Shown here piece by piece: positions 47,407-53,292 of a DNA stretch of 64,000 nucleotides. Numbering within the stretch: position 1 is the first letter of the stretch; every line of letters begins with the position of its first letter. Position numbers and translations under genes: made by a program. The notes beneath the pieces are model-generated. The model made no database searches. It worked only from the letters and a program-made list of their open reading frames with translations, and had not been told where the DNA came from. This DNA comes from an uncultured Gemmatimonadaceae bacterium. GTDB lineage: Bacteria > Gemmatimonadota > Gemmatimonadetes > Gemmatimonadales > Gemmatimonadaceae. The stretch is from the NCBI GenBank assembly GCA_963817955.1, contig CAWFQK010000004.1, positions 864,001 through 928,000 on the forward strand. Direction: 5' to 3'.

Positions 47407-48797
47407 CGTCCAAAGCTCCCGATGGAGTCGAACACGGGCAGCGCGCGCGTCCGGTGCGGCACCGGCGGCGGCGGTGGGGGCGCGGCAATCACGCGCACCA
47501 AAGTGGCGCGGAAATCCACATCCTCGACCACTTCGTCCAACCGCACGTCGATGAACGTACCGGGCAGCACGCCCTCCGCGCCGGCCACATACGTCACGCC
47601 GTCAATGTCTTCCGCCTGGCAGGCAATCCGCGCCTGCACCGCACCGTCGTCGACGTGATCGACCAGCGCGCGCACCGTGCGTCCCAGCCGCTCCTCGTAC
47701 CGATCGGCTGAGATGAGCCGCTGCACTTCATTCAACCGCTCCAGGCGCTGCAGTTTCACGTCTTCCGGCACGTCATCCTCCAGTTCTGCCGCGCGCGTCC
47801 CCTGCTGCGGCGAGTAAGTGAACGCGCCCACTCGCTCGAACTGCATCTCGTCGAGAAAGTCGAGCAACGTGTCAAAGTCCTCCTCTGTCTCGCCGGGAAA
47901 GCCGACGATACACGTGGTGCGAATGGCGACGTCTGCCACGACCTCGCGAATGCCCTGCACCCGGGCTCGAATGATCTGTTGGCGCTCAGGGCGCCGCATG
48001 CGCGACAGCACGGCATCTGAGGCATGCTGAATCGGCATGTCGAGGTACGGGAGAATGCGCGGCTCGGTCGCGATCAGCTCGAGCAACTGCGGCGTCAATC
48101 CCGCGGAGTAGAGATAGAGCATGCGGATCCACGGCACCGTCGTCTCGCGCACGAGGGCGGCAAGTAGCTCGGGAAGATGGGCGCCGTCGTGCCGGTCGCG
48201 CCCGTAATGGGCCAGGTCCTGCGCCACGAGATTGAGCTCGCGTGCGCCCTGCGCCTCGAGAAGTTGTGCTTCCTGCGCCACCTCGTCGAGCGAGAAAGAC
48301 CGATGCTTGCCGCGCATGAGCGGAATGGCGCAGAACGCGCAGCCGTGATCACACCCTTCACTGATCTTGAGGTAGCGCACGTGTGGCATGGCGCCGGTGA
48401 ACAGACGCACGCCTGGGTGTACCGCTGGCACGTCGTCCTCATCGATGAGACCGAGACGCTCGAGCTCGGGGATCAACCGATCCATCTCCGATGCGCCGAG
48501 GAAGAGATCGACTTCCGGCAGCGCGTCGATCAACTCGTCCTTGTGCCGCTGCACCATGCACCCGACGCCGACGACCGCCTTGCAGCTCCCCTCGTCCTTG
48601 AGACGCCCGGCCTCGACGAGCGCGTCGATCGACTCCTTCTTCGCCGCGTCGATGAAGCCGCAGGTATTCACGACGATGACGTCGGCCTGCGACATGTCGT
48701 CCGTGTATGCGACACCGCGGTCGGCGAGCTGCGCGACGTACCGTTCGCTATCGACGGTGTTCTTGTCGCAGCCGAGCGTGATGATGGAAAACTTCAT
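47403..48797 (-). CDS. rimO: Ribosomal protein S12 methylthiotransferase
   Basis: LGCDKNTVDSE, NTCGFI, radical SAM CDHGCAFC, IVGFPGET, TRAM domain. Confidence 0.95.
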   Translation of the reverse strand: MKFSIITLGCDKNTVDSERYVAQLADRGVAYTDDMSQADVIVVNTCGFIDAAKKESIDALVEAGRLKDEGSCKAVVGVGCMVQRHKDELIDALPEVDLFLGASEMDRLIPELERLGLIDEDDVPAVHPGVRLFTGAMPHVRYLKISEGCDHGCAFCAIPLMRGKHRSFSLDEVAQEAQLLEAQGARELNLVAQDLAHYGRDRHDGAHLPELLAALVRETTVPWIRMLYLYSAGLTPQLLELIATEPRILPYLDMPIQHASDAVLSRMRRPERQQIIRARVQGIREVVADVAIRTTCIVGFPGETEEDFDTLLDFLDEMQFERVGAFTYSPQQGTRAAELEDDVPEDVKLQRLERLNEVQRLISADRYEERLGRTVRALVDHVDDGAVQARIACQAEDIDGVTYVAGAEGVLPGTFIDVRLDEVVEDVDFRATLVRVIAAPPPPPPVPHRTRALPVFDSIGSFGR

Positions 48798-48816
48798 TTG
48801 TCTCGTGCTCCGACTC

Positions 48817-48844
48817 CCGTGTCCCGTGTCTCGTGTCTCGTGTC
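48817..48844. repeat. Heptamer tandem repeat (YCGTGTC)4
   Basis: Seen directly between yajQ and rimO. Confidence 0.85.
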
Positions 48845-48846
48845 GC

Positions 48847-49347
48847 TCACCTGAAATTCCCAAACTTCAGCTCGACACCAAAGTCCCCTTTGCGTAACAG
48901 GACGATCGCTTCCTGGAGATCGTCCTTCGACGGCGACGTGACGCGCACCTGATCGCCCTGGATGGATGCCTGCACCTTCTTCAGCTTGGCGTCCTTGATC
49001 GCCGCCGAGACCTTCTTGGCGGTGTCGGAGTCGAGCGCCGTCTTGAGCTTGACCTCGCGCCGCACCGTGTCGCCAGCCGCCTGCTTGACCTCGCCGATAT
49101 CAAGGTTCTTCACCGGCACGCCGCGCTTGATCAGCTTCGACTGTACCACATCGAATAGCGCGCGCATCTGGAATTCACTGTCGGCGACCAGGTTGATCAG
49201 CTCCTCCGTACGCTTGAACTCGATAGTCGCGTTTGAGCCTTTGAAATCGTAGCGCTGCGCGATTTCCTTCTGCGCCTGGTTGAGCGCGTTGTCCACTTCC
49301 TGCATGTCGACGCCGGTGGTGACGTCGAACGACGAATTCTGCGCCAT
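48847..49347 (-). CDS. yajQ: YajQ family nucleotide-binding protein
   Basis: SFDV, QEVDNALNQA, RYDFKGS, KVQASIQGDQVRV, DDLQ, FGNFR. Confidence 0.95.
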   Translation of the reverse strand: MAQNSSFDVTTGVDMQEVDNALNQAQKEIAQRYDFKGSNATIEFKRTEELINLVADSEFQMRALFDVVQSKLIKRGVPVKNLDIGEVKQAAGDTVRREVKLKTALDSDTAKKVSAAIKDAKLKKVQASIQGDQVRVTSPSKDDLQEAIVLLRKGDFGVELKFGNFR

Positions 49348-49463
49348 GGGGGTTGGGTTGATTTCCGTACAAGTATATCTCGTCGTCATCGGAACCGCGG
49401 ACAACGACCCGCTGCAACATCGCAACGGGCCGCCGCCCAATGGCACTGCTGACTATCCCCAGC

Positions 49464-50201
49464 TCACGCCGCGCGTTGCGCGGGATCGGCTGAGGACGGG
49501 CTTGCTGCGACAGGCGCGATAGGCGCGGCAGATGGCCCGACGGCCACCGGCGGACTCGCCGGAGCCGAGGGCATGGACCGCGCGCGCTTGGCCGATCGCC
49601 ACTCGGCCAGGAGCTGGGCATTCCCCCGCAGCTTCTGCATGACGATCGGGTCCAGCATCGCCACCGCACTACGGGCTCGCGCCACCTGCTCCTTGATCCC
49701 CGCCGTGGCGCCAATCCGGCGGCGCTCGGCGTCCTTGCGGGCGCTGAGGGCACTCTCCAACGCGTTGGTAGCCTGCACCAACTGATCGACCGTATCCGGG
49801 GCGAGCTGCGCCCGGGTAAAGTCGGCCTCGTACGGCGCCGCCGCGGTCGCCATGCCGCGCGCGGTATTCACGAGCGCCTGCCCGGACAGATGGACCGGAA
49901 GGCGGGACAACGCTTTGAAGCCCGGAACGCCGCGCAGACTCGCACGGGCGAACGTGACGATGGGCTTCATGTGCTGCTCGCGCAGCGCGACGACGAGCTG
50001 GCGATGGCGATTGCCGTGACCGGCGCGGTCACGATCCGCGGCACTCTGCTCGACGACATGAGCCGCGAGCTGCGCGTTGGCGTCGTGAAGTTGTACGCCG
50101 GCCTCGGTGTCCCTCAGACTGCCGACGACGTCGGCATGCACCGCAATGAACGCCTCAGTGCGATTGAAGGACTCTGCTTGATACAACTGGCTTTGCTTCA
50201 T
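49464..50201 (-). CDS. Uncharacterised alpha-helical protein (245 aa) with Pro/Ala tail
   Basis: ATG at 50201 with CAGGAG RBS; amphipathic helices (LREQHMKPIVTFAR; LLAEWRSAKR). Confidence 0.8.
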   Translation of the reverse strand: MKQSQLYQAESFNRTEAFIAVHADVVGSLRDTEAGVQLHDANAQLAAHVVEQSAADRDRAGHGNRHRQLVVALREQHMKPIVTFARASLRGVPGFKALSRLPVHLSGQALVNTARGMATAAAPYEADFTRAQLAPDTVDQLVQATNALESALSARKDAERRRIGATAGIKEQVARARSAVAMLDPIVMQKLRGNAQLLAEWRSAKRARSMPSAPASPPVAVGPSAAPIAPVAASPSSADPAQRAA

Positions 50202-50226
50202 GGCTGCATGCTCCTGGTGGACGCAC

Positions 50227-50272
50227 GAGAAAAGAATCCGGCCGACGTGGGCGTCCTTCACGTCGGCCGGAT
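50227..50272 (-). terminator. Intrinsic-terminator-like hairpin between the 21-bp array and the downstream gene
   Basis: Perfect 14-bp stem ATCCGGCCGACGTG/CACGTCGGCCGGAT, 9-nt loop, followed on the minus strand by TCTTTTCTC. Confidence 0.7.
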
Positions 50273-50307
50273 GGGAACTGACAACAATTGTGATGTCGTT
50301 TGCCGCG

Positions 50308-50643
50308 GAGTGACCGTCGATCGGCGGTGAGTGGGCGTCGAATCGGCGAGAGCGGCCGTCGATTCAGCGTGAGCGGCCGTCAAATCGGCGAGAGCGGTCA
50401 TCGATCGCCGGTGAGTGACCGTCGAATCGACGTGAGTGGGCACCGAATCGGCGAGAGCGACCGTCGATCGGCCGTAAGTGACCGTCGAATCGGCGCGAGC
50501 GGTCGCCGAATCGGCTCGAGTGGGCGTCGAATCGGCGTTTAGGTGCGTCGACTCGGCCTGTAGGTGCGTCGCCTCGCCGGTTAGGACCGTCGATTCAGCC
50601 TGTAGGGCCGTCGACCAGCCCTCGGTGCCCGTCTAGCGCCGTG
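50308..50643. repeat. Tandem array of 15-16 degenerate 21-bp units
   Basis: Consensus about GAGYGRCCGTCGAATCGGCGW; the CGTCGA core recurs every 21 bp with no indels. Confidence 0.92.
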
Positions 50644-50775
50644 CGCGAGCGGCGGTCAGGCTCGCACCGTCGAGGGCGCGGCCAAACTTTGGTATCGCAC
50701 CCCCCTATACTCTAGTCTCCGCGGGCGCACGCTGGCGCAAGAGGAAATTTTTGCCGCCCACGCCGTTGCGCCGTG

Positions 50776-50939
50776 ACGCGACACGAGACACGAGACACGA
50801 GACACGAGACACGAGACACGAGAAAAACTCACAACGCACAACTCACAACTGGAAACTCGAACCTCGCCGACCGGCGGGCCGACCGCTACGGAGCAGCCAG
50901 CGACATCCAGCCGGTCAACACCCGGAGCCCAATCCACTC
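50776..50939 (-). repeat. Dispersed ~110-bp repeat, copy C, with (GACACGA)6 tail
   Basis: Reverse-complement match to copies A and B. Confidence 0.88.
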
Positions 50940-51006
50940 AGCAGCGGCCGGCGAGAGTGGCTCGCCTCGTGGTCACCCACGATCGCGCCTGCCACGTCCG
51001 ACCACC

Positions 51007-53292
51007 TCACGGCATGCTGGCCGCCGCAGGCTTATCAGCGCCCTTCTTCAGCTTGGAGTCGTACCACTCCACCATCCGCCGCGACATGTCCAGAAAATCG
51101 TCCGCCGTGGCCGTTCCGCCGCCGTGCCCGCCGTTCGCATAACTCACCCACACAACTTCCTTTCCGAGCCGCCGCAACGCGTAGTACATCTCCCGCGTGT
51201 TGTCTGCCGGCACGTTGGAGTCCTGACCACCCGTGATGAGCATGAGCGGCGTCGTGATGCGGTCGGCGAACATGATTGCCGAGTGCTGCACGTACTTCTG
51301 CGGCTGCTGCCAGAGGGTGGCGCCAAGGCGATCCTGCTGGCGCTCGGCGGCCGTGATGTTGCGCACGCCGAGACGCGGACTGTCTGTGTAAAAGCTGATG
51401 ACGTCGACTTTTCCGGAAATATTGATGGCCGCCTTGAAGCGATTCGTCTGCGTCACAAGCAGGTTCGTGGCGTAGCCGCCGTAGCTCTGGCCCTGCACTC
51501 CCAGACGCGCCGAATCGGCGATGCCGAGCTCGATCAGCTTGTTGGCCGCGGCGGTGACACCTTTGAGCCACGCCTCGCCAGGATAGCCCGTCTCGAAATC
51601 GACTGACGGTTTGACGACCACGTAGCCGTTGGCCGCGAGGACGTTCGCCGTCACATCCCACGTATCATCGAAGTAGTCTTCATAGATGATGAAAACGGTC
51701 GGGTACGCGGTGCCCTTCTGGTAGTTCGCGGGATAGTGCACCACGCCGTACTTGGCGTGGCCGTCGGCATCGAGATACGACAGCAGGCCCGTCGGGCCGA
51801 ATTGCTTTGCCGCAAGCTGCGGATTCGACTCCGCGAACGGGTGCAGATTCGACAGGTCGGCGTTGGCCGTAAAGATGTCGCCCGGGCGATTGCCCTGCGT
51901 CACGGTGAGGAATGCGGTGCTTCCGTCCTTCGAGAGACGCAGATTGCTGTACGAGCGGCCATCCTTCACGAGATCGCGCGACTGTTTCGTCGCGCGGTCG
52001 TACAGAACGACTCCGCGCTCCCATTTCGTTCGCGACGCGCTCGTGAAGTACAGCTTCGAGCCATCGTCGCTCCATGCGGCAAACGTCACCCGCGGCATGG
52101 TCGGATTCGAGTCGTTCGCCGCGATGGCCATGTCGCGCTTGCCGGTGCCGAGGTCGAGCACCCACTGCCCTTCCCCGTTGGCGACGAGCAGGGCATCGCC
52201 GTGCGGGCTGAACCGGCTCGCCGAAAACCGGGCAGCTCGTGTGCGTGCGCGGCCAGCGGCGGATGTATCGGGGGGCGTAGCAGGCACGCCTTTCACGGGC
52301 TCCGGCGGACCAGCCATGAGACGCGCCGCGCTGTCGCCAAGCGACGCATAGTACACGCGTCCGTCCTTGGAGTACGCGTACCGAGTGCCGTCTTCCGACC
52401 AGATGATTTGCGCGCCGCGCGTCGAGGCGAGGAGCGTGCGTGGCGTGGCGCCGTTGAGCGGCCGCGCAATCAAGCGGCCATCGCTGCCACCCACGTCGTA
52501 GTCCGTCTTCTTGGTTTGGTCTTCGGCGTAGGTGACGGCGCTGCCGTCCGTGGCCAGCGTGTACGACGCAATCATCGCTTCCGGCACCAGCTCGTGATAC
52601 TCGCCTGTCTTCACGTCTACCGCGCCCACGCTGCGCTTGTTTCCCATACGGCGCAGGTCATCCCAGGCGAGGAACGGGTCCTTGCTGTTCTGCACGAATA
52701 CGGGGCCGACGGTCATGTTCGTGAAGGTGTCGCGCACCTTGTTGCGCCAGTCGAGGGTGTGCACCGCCACGACCACCTGTGTGCCGGCCCCGTTCCACCG
52801 GATGTCGCTGGCCTCGGCGACGTACTTGCCGGCGGGCAGCTTCAGCGACACCAGCTTGCCTGACGCGCGCGTGTAGATCGCCGGCTCATAGGTGTCGCCG
52901 TTCCAGGCGAGCAGGGCGAGCTGGCTGCCATTGGGCGACCAGCGCATGCCGCGCACGGCGCGTTTGTCCGGGAACACCGGCTTCCGATCGCCGGTTCGCG
53001 CATCGGCGATCCAGAGGCGCAACGATGTCGGATGGACGTATGTTGGATCGCCATCGTGGCGAAAGTCGTTGCCGTAGCTATCGCGGCGCACCGCCTGGGT
53101 CAGCGCCAGCCAACGTCCGTCTTCAGAGAGATCGGCAACGGCGTATGTGCTGATCTCGAGGGCGTCTTGAGCCGTGAAAAACGGCGAGTTGGTGGGGCGC
53201 GCAGCCTGCTGCGCGATAGAGACTTGTCCGCGCGATAGCGCTGGTACGAGGACAAGCAGAAGCGCGGCCAGATGAAGCCGATGGCGATTCAT
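51007..53292 (-). CDS. S9 family (prolyl oligopeptidase-like) serine peptidase
   Basis: Signal peptide, propeller repeats, GQSYGG nucleophile, DSNV, GGH. Confidence 0.9.
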   Translation of the reverse strand: MNRHRLHLAALLLVLVPALSRGQVSIAQQAARPTNSPFFTAQDALEISTYAVADLSEDGRWLALTQAVRRDSYGNDFRHDGDPTYVHPTSLRLWIADARTGDRKPVFPDKRAVRGMRWSPNGSQLALLAWNGDTYEPAIYTRASGKLVSLKLPAGKYVAEASDIRWNGAGTQVVVAVHTLDWRNKVRDTFTNMTVGPVFVQNSKDPFLAWDDLRRMGNKRSVGAVDVKTGEYHELVPEAMIASYTLATDGSAVTYAEDQTKKTDYDVGGSDGRLIARPLNGATPRTLLASTRGAQIIWSEDGTRYAYSKDGRVYYASLGDSAARLMAGPPEPVKGVPATPPDTSAAGRARTRAARFSASRFSPHGDALLVANGEGQWVLDLGTGKRDMAIAANDSNPTMPRVTFAAWSDDGSKLYFTSASRTKWERGVVLYDRATKQSRDLVKDGRSYSNLRLSKDGSTAFLTVTQGNRPGDIFTANADLSNLHPFAESNPQLAAKQFGPTGLLSYLDADGHAKYGVVHYPANYQKGTAYPTVFIIYEDYFDDTWDVTANVLAANGYVVVKPSVDFETGYPGEAWLKGVTAAANKLIELGIADSARLGVQGQSYGGYATNLLVTQTNRFKAAINISGKVDVISFYTDSPRLGVRNITAAERQQDRLGATLWQQPQKYVQHSAIMFADRITTPLMLITGGQDSNVPADNTREMYYALRRLGKEVVWVSYANGGHGGGTATADDFLDMSRRMVEWYDSKLKKGADKPAAASMP

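Follow-up and report, generated by a model that had tools for sequence, protein, structure and literature searches.

A multicopy, Gemmatimonadota-specific cassette of 21-bp tandem array, hairpin leader and helical-protein gene, with an apparent type III toxin-antitoxin layout

The window analysed here, a stretch of 64,000 nucleotides from the genome of an uncultured Gemmatimonadaceae bacterium, carries on its minus strand a phased 21-bp tandem array, a hairpin and a gene for a protein of 245 residues. The locus raises the question of whether these elements form one unit and, if so, what the array contributes to it. In the initial annotation, the block was described as an inserted, attenuator-like module with a possibly translated leader, for which no described system could be named. 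The reading as a single module, its insertion and the RNA structure of its leader all held; the translated leader and the lack of a described counterpart did not. The block is a single copy of a multicopy cassette that is specific to Gemmatimonadota.

Anatomy of the cassette and its insertion site

The array, hairpin, ribosome-binding site (RBS) and open reading frame were all recovered where they had originally been placed, as were the neighbouring yajQ and S9 peptidase genes (by domain matches) and a dispersed repeat (by blastn). Their positions are collected in Table 1, together with the additional elements recognised in the course of the analysis.

Table 1. Features of the cassette and its surroundings, in window coordinates.
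Feature	Position	Strand	Evidence
S9 peptidase and yajQ genes, flanking the cassette			Peptidase_S9, E 2.5e-29; DUF520/YajQ, E 1.3e-61
Dispersed MITE-like repeat, ~160-190 bp, with 7-bp tandem runs	50776..50965	-	blastn against own genome
Promoter/operator-like head	50700..50755	-	motif recurrence
Exactly phased array of 16 degenerate 21-bp units, noncoding	50308..50643	-	TRF, repeat search, autocorrelation
Conserved array-end segment with palindrome ACAATTGT	50273..50307	-	comparison of two array copies
Leader hairpin P1: perfect 14-bp stem, 9-nt loop AAGGACGCC (50258-50250)	50236..50272	-	inverted-repeat search
Pyrimidine/U-rich tract TCTTTTCTCGT after the hairpin	50225..50235	-	sequence reading
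GCGTCC, pairs with P1 loop bases GGACGC (50256-50251)	50219..50224	-	complementarity
RBS AGGAG, 9 nt upstream of ATG	50211..50215	-	sequence reading
Gene for basic, all-helical bundle protein of 245 aa	49464..50201	-	ORF, AlphaFold2
3' hairpin: stem of 19 pairs, some of them G-U, with a 4-nt loop, then GGTTCC	49398..49439	-	fold of 49347-49470

The phased units claimed initially number 16 when 50643 to 50308 is cut at 21 bp. The repeat search returned 14 in-register copies (50314 to 50633), all 13 spacings of which are exactly 21, and TRF reported period 21 over 50308-50538 (11.0 copies, 72% matches) and 50524-50615 (4.4 copies). Autocorrelation of the array reaches 0.64, 0.64 and 0.62 at lags 21, 42 and 63, respectively, and is 0.34 or lower at all other lags from 1 to 69. 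The array's sense strand is rich in C (0.39, versus 0.27 for G), and the GGA motif is absent. A second copy of this array (76-77% identity), which lacks a gene, is located elsewhere in the genome (G000:C4:30503-30842), with the unit variants in the same order. The array-end segment is nearly identical in the genome's two array copies, while the arrays themselves differ by ~23%. The array DNA was not found in 40 relatives, save for one weak match of 30 nt.

Upstream of the array, at 60-110 nt from its first unit, is a conserved head that contains an AT-rich box besides a palindromic motif. In the window it reads, in order, palindromic GGCAAAAATTTCC (50755-50743), TTGCGCC (50740-50734) and TAGAGTATAGG with a G run (50714-50700). 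The motif CAAAAATT[TG]CC occurs only four times in the 4.5-Mb genome, three of them upstream of family genes, and both this motif and a AAGTAGAGGGG-like box are found upstream of arrays at the loci of other genomes. We infer that the head may function as a promoter; a scan for the sigma-70 consensus yielded no promoter sites at the locus. The pattern TTGCGC-N20-TA is common to the heads of the own genome, but was rejected as a general promoter, since, of the 73 loci in other genomes, only two show it. A sigma-54-like reading of the palindrome was likewise discarded owing to its wrong spacing, as judged by eye.

At the opposite end, the 3' hairpin is likely both a terminator and the boundary of the cassette. 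Paralogous cassettes align from the conserved head through this hairpin, just past the stop codon, and their homology stops there; in other cassette subfamilies, homology stops directly after an equivalent 16-bp hairpin, followed by GTTCCT. Judged by these alignments, the cassette is a bounded unit with the shape of a transcription unit.

The junction between the S9 peptidase gene and yajQ measures 1659 bp in the window, versus 15-75 nt in 6-7 relatives of the genus, which bears out the first impression that the block had been inserted; the window copy is an insertion into an otherwise conserved junction. The dispersed repeat, present in more than 25 genome copies at 84-95% identity and containing 7-bp arrays at 50776-50823 and 50826-50850 (TRF), adjoins the 5' side of the cassette and probably does not belong to the cassette proper. 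Heptamer runs precede the heads of many other cassette copies as well.

The protein family and its recurrent association with arrays

The start codon at 50201 matches the first residue of 11 homologues in the alignment. Structure prediction and fold search, both proposed in the initial annotation, agreed with its description of an all-helical protein lacking a recognised motif. The AlphaFold2 model (pLDDT 85.5) is an all-helical bundle with a disordered Pro/Ala-rich tail (residues 212-245) that ends in -AA, and Foldseek comparison of the model with PDB and BFVD gave no match at E≤0.001. The protein had no match below E 0.06 in Pfam, NCBIfam, PHROGs or PADLOC, none of 56 family members matched Pfam, and the best hit of the family profile among PDB sequences had an E value of only 0.56. 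In a wide VIA-align comparison, the sensor domain of McpS scored best (Z 10.1), ahead of receptor bundles from trypanosomes and of TorS; since these scores fall within the range common for helical bundles, no function was deduced from them.

Family cores are basic, with a median pI of 10.3 and values above 9 in 132 of 134 members. Across 56 diverse members, W201 is the only invariant residue, and no catalytic signature is therefore seen in the family. A HEPN-like R-x4-H of the window protein was considered and dismissed, as it is not conserved in homologues. From its model and composition, the 245-residue protein looks strongly basic and non-enzymatic. Half of the members (67 of 134) share the C-terminal -AA, which may be a protease tag; if so, the labile member of the pair would be the protein rather than the RNA, opposite to the situation in toxin-antitoxin (TA) loci of type III.

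At E≤1e-3, 3325 relatives (representative clusters) were collected. The family is uncharacterised and restricted to Gemmatimonadota, where 48 of the 201 genomes sampled contain it, these belonging to only 2 of 12 families. The genome of the window carries 23 family loci, within a range of 13-23 per genome. Each protein subfamily is paired with its own gene-proximal unit type.

Inspection of the flanks of homologues, suggested at the outset as a check, revealed that periodicity and hairpin recur together with the gene. A 21-period array is present within 2 kb upstream at 21 of the 23 loci of the own genome (gap ~110-300 bp) and downstream at only one, compared with 985 of 20000 random 2-kb windows (4.9%). 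In other genomes, the upstream 210-bp window reaches an autocorrelation of at least 0.5 at 38 of 73 homologous loci, the best lags being 21 (26 loci), 42 (8), 43 (3) and 22 (1); only 1 of 54 control segments reached 0.5, and did so at lag 17. The arrangement of array and gene exceeds chance. Arrays range from the 16 units of the window up to ~60 in paralogues. ORFs beside 21 other 21-bp array regions look spurious; none matched the family profile, even with a threshold of E≤10.

At least six copies retain the array, with or without the leader, but have no gene, and only one apparently intact gene lacks an array; the gene thus seems to be lost from cassettes more readily than the array. Terminal inverted repeats and target duplications were not seen at the cassette ends. 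All loci are chromosomal, and the family was not found in plasmids (72,556 records), phages or IMG/VR. In its copy number, patchy occurrence, insertion and gene loss, the family behaves at the population level much like toxin-antitoxin or defence modules. Three soil-metagenome DNA runs yielded only short contigs of low depth and gave no indication of unit number. Literature searches on tandem repeats of Gemmatimonadetes/Gemmatimonadota and on 21-bp or 21-nt tandem repeats found no such bacterial module among the papers listed.

Evolution of the arrays and structure of the leader

In two pairs of cassettes, mismatches within the gene are distributed over the codon phases as 5/22/7 and 5/21/7, third positions accounting for 22 of 34 and 21 of 33, whereas those of the arrays are flat (26/23/28 and 77/70/56). 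Period-3 variability is absent from all 12 arrays analysed in this respect. Between the two cassettes B1 and B3, the array has diverged by ~21%, the leader by 7.5% and the gene by 4.4%, and arrays diverge faster than synonymous sites. On this evidence the arrays are noncoding and fast-evolving.

These codon phases speak directly to the option of a translated leader raised in the initial annotation, which they contradict. According to this option, the array would encode a heptad-repeat leader peptide or an antisense coiled-coil protein, 21 bp being equal to seven codons. Long stop-free frames do exist, chiefly antisense (257-588 aa in seven cassettes), some with an LxxLxxx pattern. In addition to the flat mismatch profile and the lack of period-3 variability, however, periods of 22 and 43 bp occur, no plus-strand frame is open through all 16 window units, and these units contain compensating 1-nt shifts, such that translation of the array is barely conceivable.

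The rapid turnover bears on a further explanation, which we regard as improbable: the array may lack any sequence-specific function and be a satellite that unequal crossing-over maintains within a selfish, duplicating cassette. It would then serve at most as a spacer or as a homology tract driving recombination and gene conversion, and its period would be inherited rather than selected. Persistence is the difficulty for such an account. Arrays remain upstream of the gene across two bacterial families despite complete sequence turnover, in unvarying position and orientation, whereas useless tracts of 0.3-1.3 kb would be expected to be lost from compact bacterial genomes; moreover, orphan arrays outlast genes and not vice versa. 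What a satellite would explain well is the divergence in excess of synonymous sites, the whole-unit differences between close copies (gap columns of 63 and 84), the sharing of unit families by several loci of one genome, the many decayed and orphan arrays, and the general richness of this genome in tandem repeats (926 TRF rows).

It is likewise unlikely that the array acts as DNA, with sites phased every two helical turns in the manner of iterons, centromeres or operators, which the cassette protein or a nucleoid protein would bind to autoregulate, insulate or organise the locus. All 38 periodic loci do have periods (21, 22, 42 or 43 bp) that correspond to two or four B-DNA turns, and some of these periods are not divisible by 3; half a unit also gives a weak signal (0.34 at lag 11 versus ~0.25), the protein is basic, and the head contains an operator-like palindromic motif. 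Plasmid iterons (19-22 bp) and sopC of the F plasmid (12 x 43 bp) adjoin the gene of their own binding protein, and the cassette resembles them in its helically phased repeats (~19-22 or 43 bp in those systems) beside the gene of a putative binder. The period fits, yet no Rep, ParB, ParR or RHH-type domain was detected in the protein, and its model contains no HTH, RHH or winged-helix fold. In contrast to iterons and centromeres, the cassette is chromosomal and multicopy, is missing from the plasmids and phages searched, and its arrays lie within a probable transcribed leader ending in an RNA-constrained hairpin. The array is always placed between the conserved head and this leader, on the strand of the gene, and its unit sequences drift fast. 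Finally, C exceeds G on the sense strand in 44 of 53 arrays (mean skew +0.12, near 0 in the large arrays of the own genome), a strand bias for which a pure DNA site has no need. The skew is only modest, and the idea that the arrays are Rho sites was abandoned for this reason.

The leader itself provides evidence at the RNA level. The hairpin P1 conforms to its first description as a 14-bp hairpin with a U-rich tail: the two 14-nt arms (50259-50272 and 50236-50249) are 100% complementary, the tail is TCTTTTCT, and the local fold has an energy of -29.8 kcal/mol. P1 is positioned 35 nt downstream of the array and 34 nt upstream of the ATG; the RBS, also annotated correctly, is followed by this same start codon at 50201, and paralogues carry GGAG or GGAGG in the equivalent position. 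A consensus terminator scan did not report P1, because it permits loops of 3-8 nt only. A U-rich tail is present in only ~7 of 22 aligned related leaders, the remainder being C/U-rich. In the window, the tract following P1 can be read as an intrinsic-terminator tail and, equally, as a pseudoknot linker, and the GCGTCC beyond it is predicted to supply an H-type pseudoknot with its second helix, or else to pair in an alternative way.

Among the 22 related leaders, which were selected for showing the motif and are mutually related, so that the covariation counts should be read accordingly, compensatory change is seen at 15 of 21 pairs, and G-U pairs occur as well. Twelve of the 14 P1 stem pairs exhibit changes on both sides, and the second helix is paired in 92.9% of cases, with compensatory changes at three of its pairs (A-U 15/G-C 6, C-G 19/U-A 1 and G-C 13/C-G 3). 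Overall, 89.2% of leader cells are paired, a share that drops to 75.5% in shuffled controls and to 27-49% with slid partners. The covariation supports RNA structure on the sense strand of the leader and points to selection at the RNA level directly after the array. The hairpin and the pseudoknot are confined to part of the family: a match of at least 6 nt between the loop and the downstream sequence was detected in 16 of 71 leaders, compared with 8.2% after shuffling. The fold of the whole leader (z-score -3.68) is dominated by the hairpin and was not taken to indicate structure in the array.

Could the pseudoknotted leader alone be functional, as a riboswitch-like element or a protein-binding translational operator, the array being incidental? 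Covariation of both the hairpin and the helix between loop and downstream sequence argues for such a role, as does the position of the pseudoknot, whose 3' strand ends 3-17 nt ahead of the Shine-Dalgarno sequence. The leader is also the most conserved noncoding part of the cassette (1.5-7.5% divergence), and its motif is confined to the cassette context, all eight matches of a leader covariance model in the genome adjoining arrays or family genes. Against this, the Shine-Dalgarno sequence itself is not sequestered, the Rfam 15 covariance models gave no match at E≤1 on either strand of 48500-51500, the motif is missing from many members that still carry arrays, and the array would be left unexplained. 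A function of the leader alone is accordingly rated as very unlikely.

A proposed role of the repeat RNA as partner of the cassette protein

The explanation favoured here, at a probability of about 0.45, is that the repeat RNA is a partner of the cassette's own protein. A single promoter would transcribe the array; the majority of transcripts would stop at the hairpin, resulting in a surplus of repeat RNA, and read-through transcripts would yield the protein. The repeat RNA would then act as a polyvalent binding partner, sequestering or neutralising the protein. The GC-rich hairpin would double as a terminator-like element and as the first helix of the conserved pseudoknot, and the cassettes would be selfish or addictive units that duplicate, enter new sites and decay.

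A described system with such a layout does exist, contrary to the initial annotation. By the criteria set out for type III TA loci, a tandem array is followed by a palindromic terminator, which sets the ratio of RNA to toxin, and a gene (PMC3401426; PMC12283969), while a promoter directly upstream of the array is preferred but is not a strict criterion (Blower et al. 2012, PMC3401426). The latter account comprises three ToxN-like families, mainly from Firmicutes, Fusobacteria and Proteobacteria, with repeats of 31-62 nt in 1.9-5.6 copies (Table 2 therein) and with loci in which truncated toxin genes retain full repeats; it also predicts that further families could be found by means of "tandem repeats + palindrome + ORF". 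The cassette shares with the type III systems (ToxIN/AbiQ, CptIN and TenpIN), as portrayed there, the order of a direct-repeat array, a predicted Rho-independent terminator and a protein gene, with a promoter ahead of them that is putative in the cassette, as well as the mostly chromosomal location, the frequent occurrence of several copies per genome and the specificity of repeats to the toxin subfamily.

Examined feature by feature, the likeness is incomplete. A tandem array (16 x 21 bp) is present and recurs at paralogous loci, and a palindrome with predicted termination is present in the window, the hairpin being found in a subset of the family. The geometry of 21 nt in 16 to ~60 units differs from that of the known repeats. 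No match to a toxin was obtained in PADLOC, Pfam, NCBIfam or PHROGs at E≤0.01. Type III toxins are ToxN-like endoRNases related to Kid/MazF, whereas the protein described here is an all-alpha bundle, basic and devoid of conserved catalytic residues. As no likeness to ToxN, CptN, TenpN or Abi_2 was found in Pfam and PADLOC either, toxicity of the protein is pure conjecture, drawn by analogy. The repeats of type III systems fold as pseudoknots; in contrast, the 21-nt units do not provide the length needed for a ToxI-like pseudoknot, and not every unit of the window array preserves the small hairpin that such a unit could form (by eye). It is also odd for a specific binding partner that the arrays evolve faster than synonymous sites. 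In terms of its sequence organisation, the cassette appears to combine the layout of a type III TA locus with a new protein family and unusually long arrays.

A more specific version of the partner hypothesis, which we consider doubtful, would make the cassette a phylum-specific, type III-like class, in which the 21-nt array, freed by the terminator/pseudoknot, scaffolds the protein, and the two form an addictive or anti-phage pair. The array would coat or sequester the basic helical bundle in an RNP filament or condensate, rather than in a closed 3:3 ring. An addictive or anti-phage module of this kind would explain the multicopy, patchy and quickly decaying distribution and the survival of orphan arrays.

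Other RNA-based systems offer partial parallels. The sponge RNAs CsrB and RsmZ are similarly noncoding, with many short repeated sites that titrate a protein; they are, however, unlinked to the gene of the target protein, and their repeats are GGA hairpin loops rather than tandem units of exact period. AbiF (Abi_2) is neutralised by the noncoding RNA RCd22 through direct RNA-protein binding, according to a preprint on this pair (10.1101/2025.04.15.648962), and in AvcID a protein that is not of the ToxN type is reported to be neutralised by an upstream or adjacent noncoding RNA (PMC10511110). As described in these sources, the two systems resemble the cassette in that the logic of RNA partner and protein is not bound to one fold, but their RNAs are single structured small RNAs (RCd22 with two abiF motifs), whereas the cassette has long arrays. 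Pfam revealed no Abi_2 or deaminase match in the protein, nor did Rfam detect an abiF motif in 48500-51500.

The cassette follows the grammar of type III TA loci in a poorly studied soil phylum, with an unrelated protein family of thousands of members, and its arrays are ten times longer, and their units shorter, than any described. If the array acts as DNA, the cassette would represent a multicopy counterpart, on the chromosome, of iteron or centromere arrays. Should the repeat RNA and the protein indeed be partners, the concept of RNA-antitoxin and RNA-sponge modules would be broadened, an RNA-binding fold and a pseudoknotted leader motif, both new, would be added, and a large share of the tandem-repeat load in these genomes would be explained.

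Architecture and insertion of the window cassette

The array, hairpin, ribosome-binding site (RBS) and open reading frame (ORF) described in the initial annotation were all found at the window locus, and were then generalized to further loci. The 21-bp periodicity of the array is real: two TRF rows report period 21 across 50308-50615, the 14 copies recovered by a repeat search are spaced by 21 bp in 13 of 13 cases, and the autocorrelation is 0.62-0.64 at lags of 21, 42 and 63 bp (≤0.34 elsewhere). The leader hairpin was overlooked by the terminator scan, since the latter permits loops of only 3-8 nt.

Elements of the window cassette and the preceding repeat, in order along the minus strand
Feature	Position	Strand	Remarks
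Dispersed repeat	50965-50776	minus	first element
Head	50755-50700	minus	AT-richer; 3' of dispersed repeat
Array	50643-50308	minus	16 degenerate 21-bp units in exact phase (TRF, repeat search, autocorrelation)
Array-end segment	between array and hairpin	minus	35 nt
Leader hairpin	50272-50236	minus	perfect 14-bp stem, 9-nt loop
U-rich tract	directly after hairpin	minus	
RBS	between U-rich tract and ATG	minus	AGGAG
ORF	ATG at 50201, end at 49464	minus	245 codons
3' hairpin	49439-49398	minus	counterpart of the paralogues' post-stop hairpin

The dispersed repeat is MITE-like, ~160-190 bp long, and present in more than 25 genome copies of 84-95% identity. Its end is made up of 7-bp tandem units (GTGTCTC/GGGACAC types); runs of this kind also occur at window positions 48799-48844 and, in either orientation, directly 5' of the heads in many cassette copies.

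The flanking genes encode YajQ/DUF520 and an S9 peptidase. The distance from the S9 stop to the yajQ start is 1659 bp here versus 15-75 nt in 6-7 genomes of the genus, which bears out the earlier view of the block as inserted. None of 27 relatives carried a family gene at yajQ, and no other retrieved family locus was syntenic with the window.

Paralogous cassettes are alignable over 2.1-2.3 kb, with sharp ends and five distinguishable parts. At the 5' end they share a conserved head (~130 bp in an alignment of 18 loci), which may serve as a promoter/operator; a sigma-70 promoter scan at the window locus found nothing. The motif GGCAAAAATT(T/G)CC is present in the head of the window copy and in those of two further subfamilies. 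Three of its four genome occurrences lie upstream of family genes, and in other genomes it is also found upstream of arrays, together with a AAGTAGAGGGG-like box. At the opposite end, a long hairpin lies ~25 nt 3' of the stop codon, and cassette homology stops right behind it.

Association of arrays with the gene family

A profile built from paralogues detected 23 family loci in the bacterium's own 4.5-Mb genome, ~11 of which look intact, the remainder being fragments or frameshifted. TRF returned 926 rows for this genome, 191 of period 21 and 70 of period 42; merged, these form 176 regions that add up to 30 kb (0.6% of the genome) and contain many different unit sequences. Such arrays lie within 2 kb upstream at 21 of the 23 loci, with gaps of 110-300 bp to the protein start, and downstream at only one; as a control, 985 of 20000 random 2-kb windows hold a qualifying array. 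The sole apparently intact gene with no detectable array is at C5:177213 (contig C5).

Within the genus, the family occurs in 18 of 31 genomes, at up to 13 places per genome. At 38 of 73 homologous loci in other genomes, an upstream 210-bp window has an autocorrelation ≥0.5, peaking at 21 (26 loci), 42 (8), 43 (3) or 22 bp (1) and at no other lag; of 54 segments from the yajQ region of relatives that served as controls, one reaches 0.5, at lag 17. The periodicity that the initial annotation proposed to seek beside homologues is therefore present at both own and foreign loci.

In at least six copies the gene has been lost a few codons past its start or earlier, leaving either head, array and leader or just the array; two further loci consist of a head and arrays with no gene. 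A second copy of the window array (C4:30503-30842; 76-77% identity, unit variants in the same order) has an end segment nearly identical to that of the window and no gene behind it. This orphan lies ~0.7 kb upstream of smpB, and in place of hairpin and gene it is followed by a 13-bp tandem repeat family. The only doublet seen is at C1:440895-442532, where two family genes stand in tandem behind one head, array and leader.

The genome is unusually rich in tandem repeats generally, other short families (the 13-bp AGAGAACTGCAAG type, the 17-bp CTGACGGCGCTGACTCC type and 20-bp units) being scattered through it, for example at C4:1419384, C2:838224, C1:219364 and C4:1158908. Long period-60 arrays at C9:137200-146900, in which a 28-nt unit stays constant while the spacers vary, are CRISPR arrays. 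Very regular 90-, 126- and 144-bp repeats at C2:629400-630557 (up to 97% matches, rich in GGC/GCC triplets) probably encode a collagen-like or Gly-rich repeat protein.

The family comprises 3325 representative clusters at E≤1e-3 (333 at E≤1e-30), of Gemmatimonadota lineage according to ESM Atlas. Of 201 genomes sampled from the phylum, 48 carried it, one of them the unpublished G095. It was present in 5 of 38 genomes of one family and 42 of 96 of another in the same order, and in 0 of 66 from ten other families. Searches of plasmid, phage and IMG/VR collections yielded no member.

Leader and array sequences

Across 22 leaders, drawn from this genome and others, the hairpin is followed after 8-15 nt by a stretch complementary to its loop (loop:downstream pairs GGACGC:GCGTCC in the window; GGGCGC:GCGCCC and GGATGC:GCATCC elsewhere). 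In their MAFFT alignment, 89.2% of cells are paired versus 75.5% after shuffling (none of 500 shuffles attains 89.2%), the leaders having been picked for the motif, being mutually related and having themselves supplied the structure; two rows (own A and B types), off by two columns, were kept uncorrected. Sliding the partners by 1-3 columns leaves only 27-49% pairing. Changes on both sides were seen in 15 of 21 base pairs; the helix between the loop and the downstream stretch shows 92.9% pairing and includes three compensatory pairs. G-U pairs occur, in keeping with an RNA from the gene's strand. A covariance model of the hairpin located eight genome places, all adjoining arrays or family genes, including a new one (C6:89315-89365) with only 8 codons of the gene left. 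The leader might be the regulator by itself, a reading we consider improbable. Not every leader has this motif: 16 of 71 show a match of ≥6 nt between loop and downstream stretch, versus 8.2% after shuffling; leaders of other subfamilies have two successive hairpins, or none.

The arrays, 0.3-1.3 kb long, are the fastest-diverging part of the cassette: in one pair, the array has diverged by ~21%, the leader by 7.5% and the gene by 4.4%, and gaps come as multiples of 21. An array that is a functionless satellite within a selfish cassette would be a rather unlikely explanation. We likewise give little credence to phased sites acting at the DNA level. C exceeds G on the sense strand in 44 of the 53 arrays examined from other genomes (mean skew +0.12); the skew is +0.17 in the window array and near zero in the large arrays of its own genome.

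Translation of the array, an option raised in the initial annotation, has a probability close to nil. Between cassette pairs, gene mismatches fall by codon phase as 5/22/7 and 5/21/7, and array mismatches as 26/23/28 and 77/70/56; no period-3 variability was found within 12 arrays (permutation p 0.1-0.98). The flat array counts, together with the 22- and 43-bp periods that exist among homologous loci, indicate that the arrays are noncoding. The opposite strand is stop-free for 257-588 codons across arrays (e.g., C4:1540890-1543010 and C5:100270-102180), with Cys-, Arg- and Gly-rich LxxLxxx heptads that gene callers may annotate as proteins; given the noncoding pattern, these frames are a by-product of the repeat. 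The earlier interpretation is partly supported: the insertion and the array's association with homologues held, and the translated leader did not.

The helical protein and its relation to type III systems

The AlphaFold2 model of the window protein (with 12 homologues; pLDDT 85.5) is an elongated helical bundle, with helices at 33-88, 107-130 and 137-190 as well as shorter ones; from residue 212 onward it is a disordered Pro/Ala tail. Family libraries, searched with this protein and other members, gave no recognised family, and sequence searches of solved structures gave no match; fold searches returned only generic helical bundles (Foldseek, nothing at E≤0.001; VIA-align, Z≤10.1). The helical core is basic (median pI 10.3; >9 in 132 of 134 members). 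Over 56 diverse members W201 is the only invariant residue, and no conserved acidic, histidine or lysine catalytic candidates were found. From these sequences, a binding or structural role would be likelier than catalysis. Half of the members (67 of 134; 200-270 aa) end in -AA, often as ...EVKAA, after a disordered Pro/Ala-rich tail of variable length, an ending we take to resemble C-terminal protease-recognition tags.

No published description of the module was found in the openly accessible literature. In the type III toxin-antitoxin systems, according to PMC3401426 and PMC12283969, a tandem array is followed by a palindromic terminator and then the toxin gene. The terminator determines how much antitoxic repeat RNA is made relative to toxin mRNA, and some truncated toxin genes still have their full repeats. 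The present cassette has the same locus grammar and population behaviour. In contrast, its protein belongs to another family, and its units are 21 nt in 16 to ~60 copies, as against 31-62 nt in 1.9-5.6 copies; on these grounds it fails as a member of type III. AbiF with RCd22, and AvcID, show that proteins of other folds can serve in type III-like pairs (10.1101/2025.04.15.648962; PMC10511110). The authors of PMC3401426 foresaw further type III families discoverable by the same grammar. By analogy, the best reading, to which we assign a probability of roughly 45%, is that, within a mobile, multicopy cassette, a repeat RNA would be paired, in type III-like fashion, with a basic helical protein.
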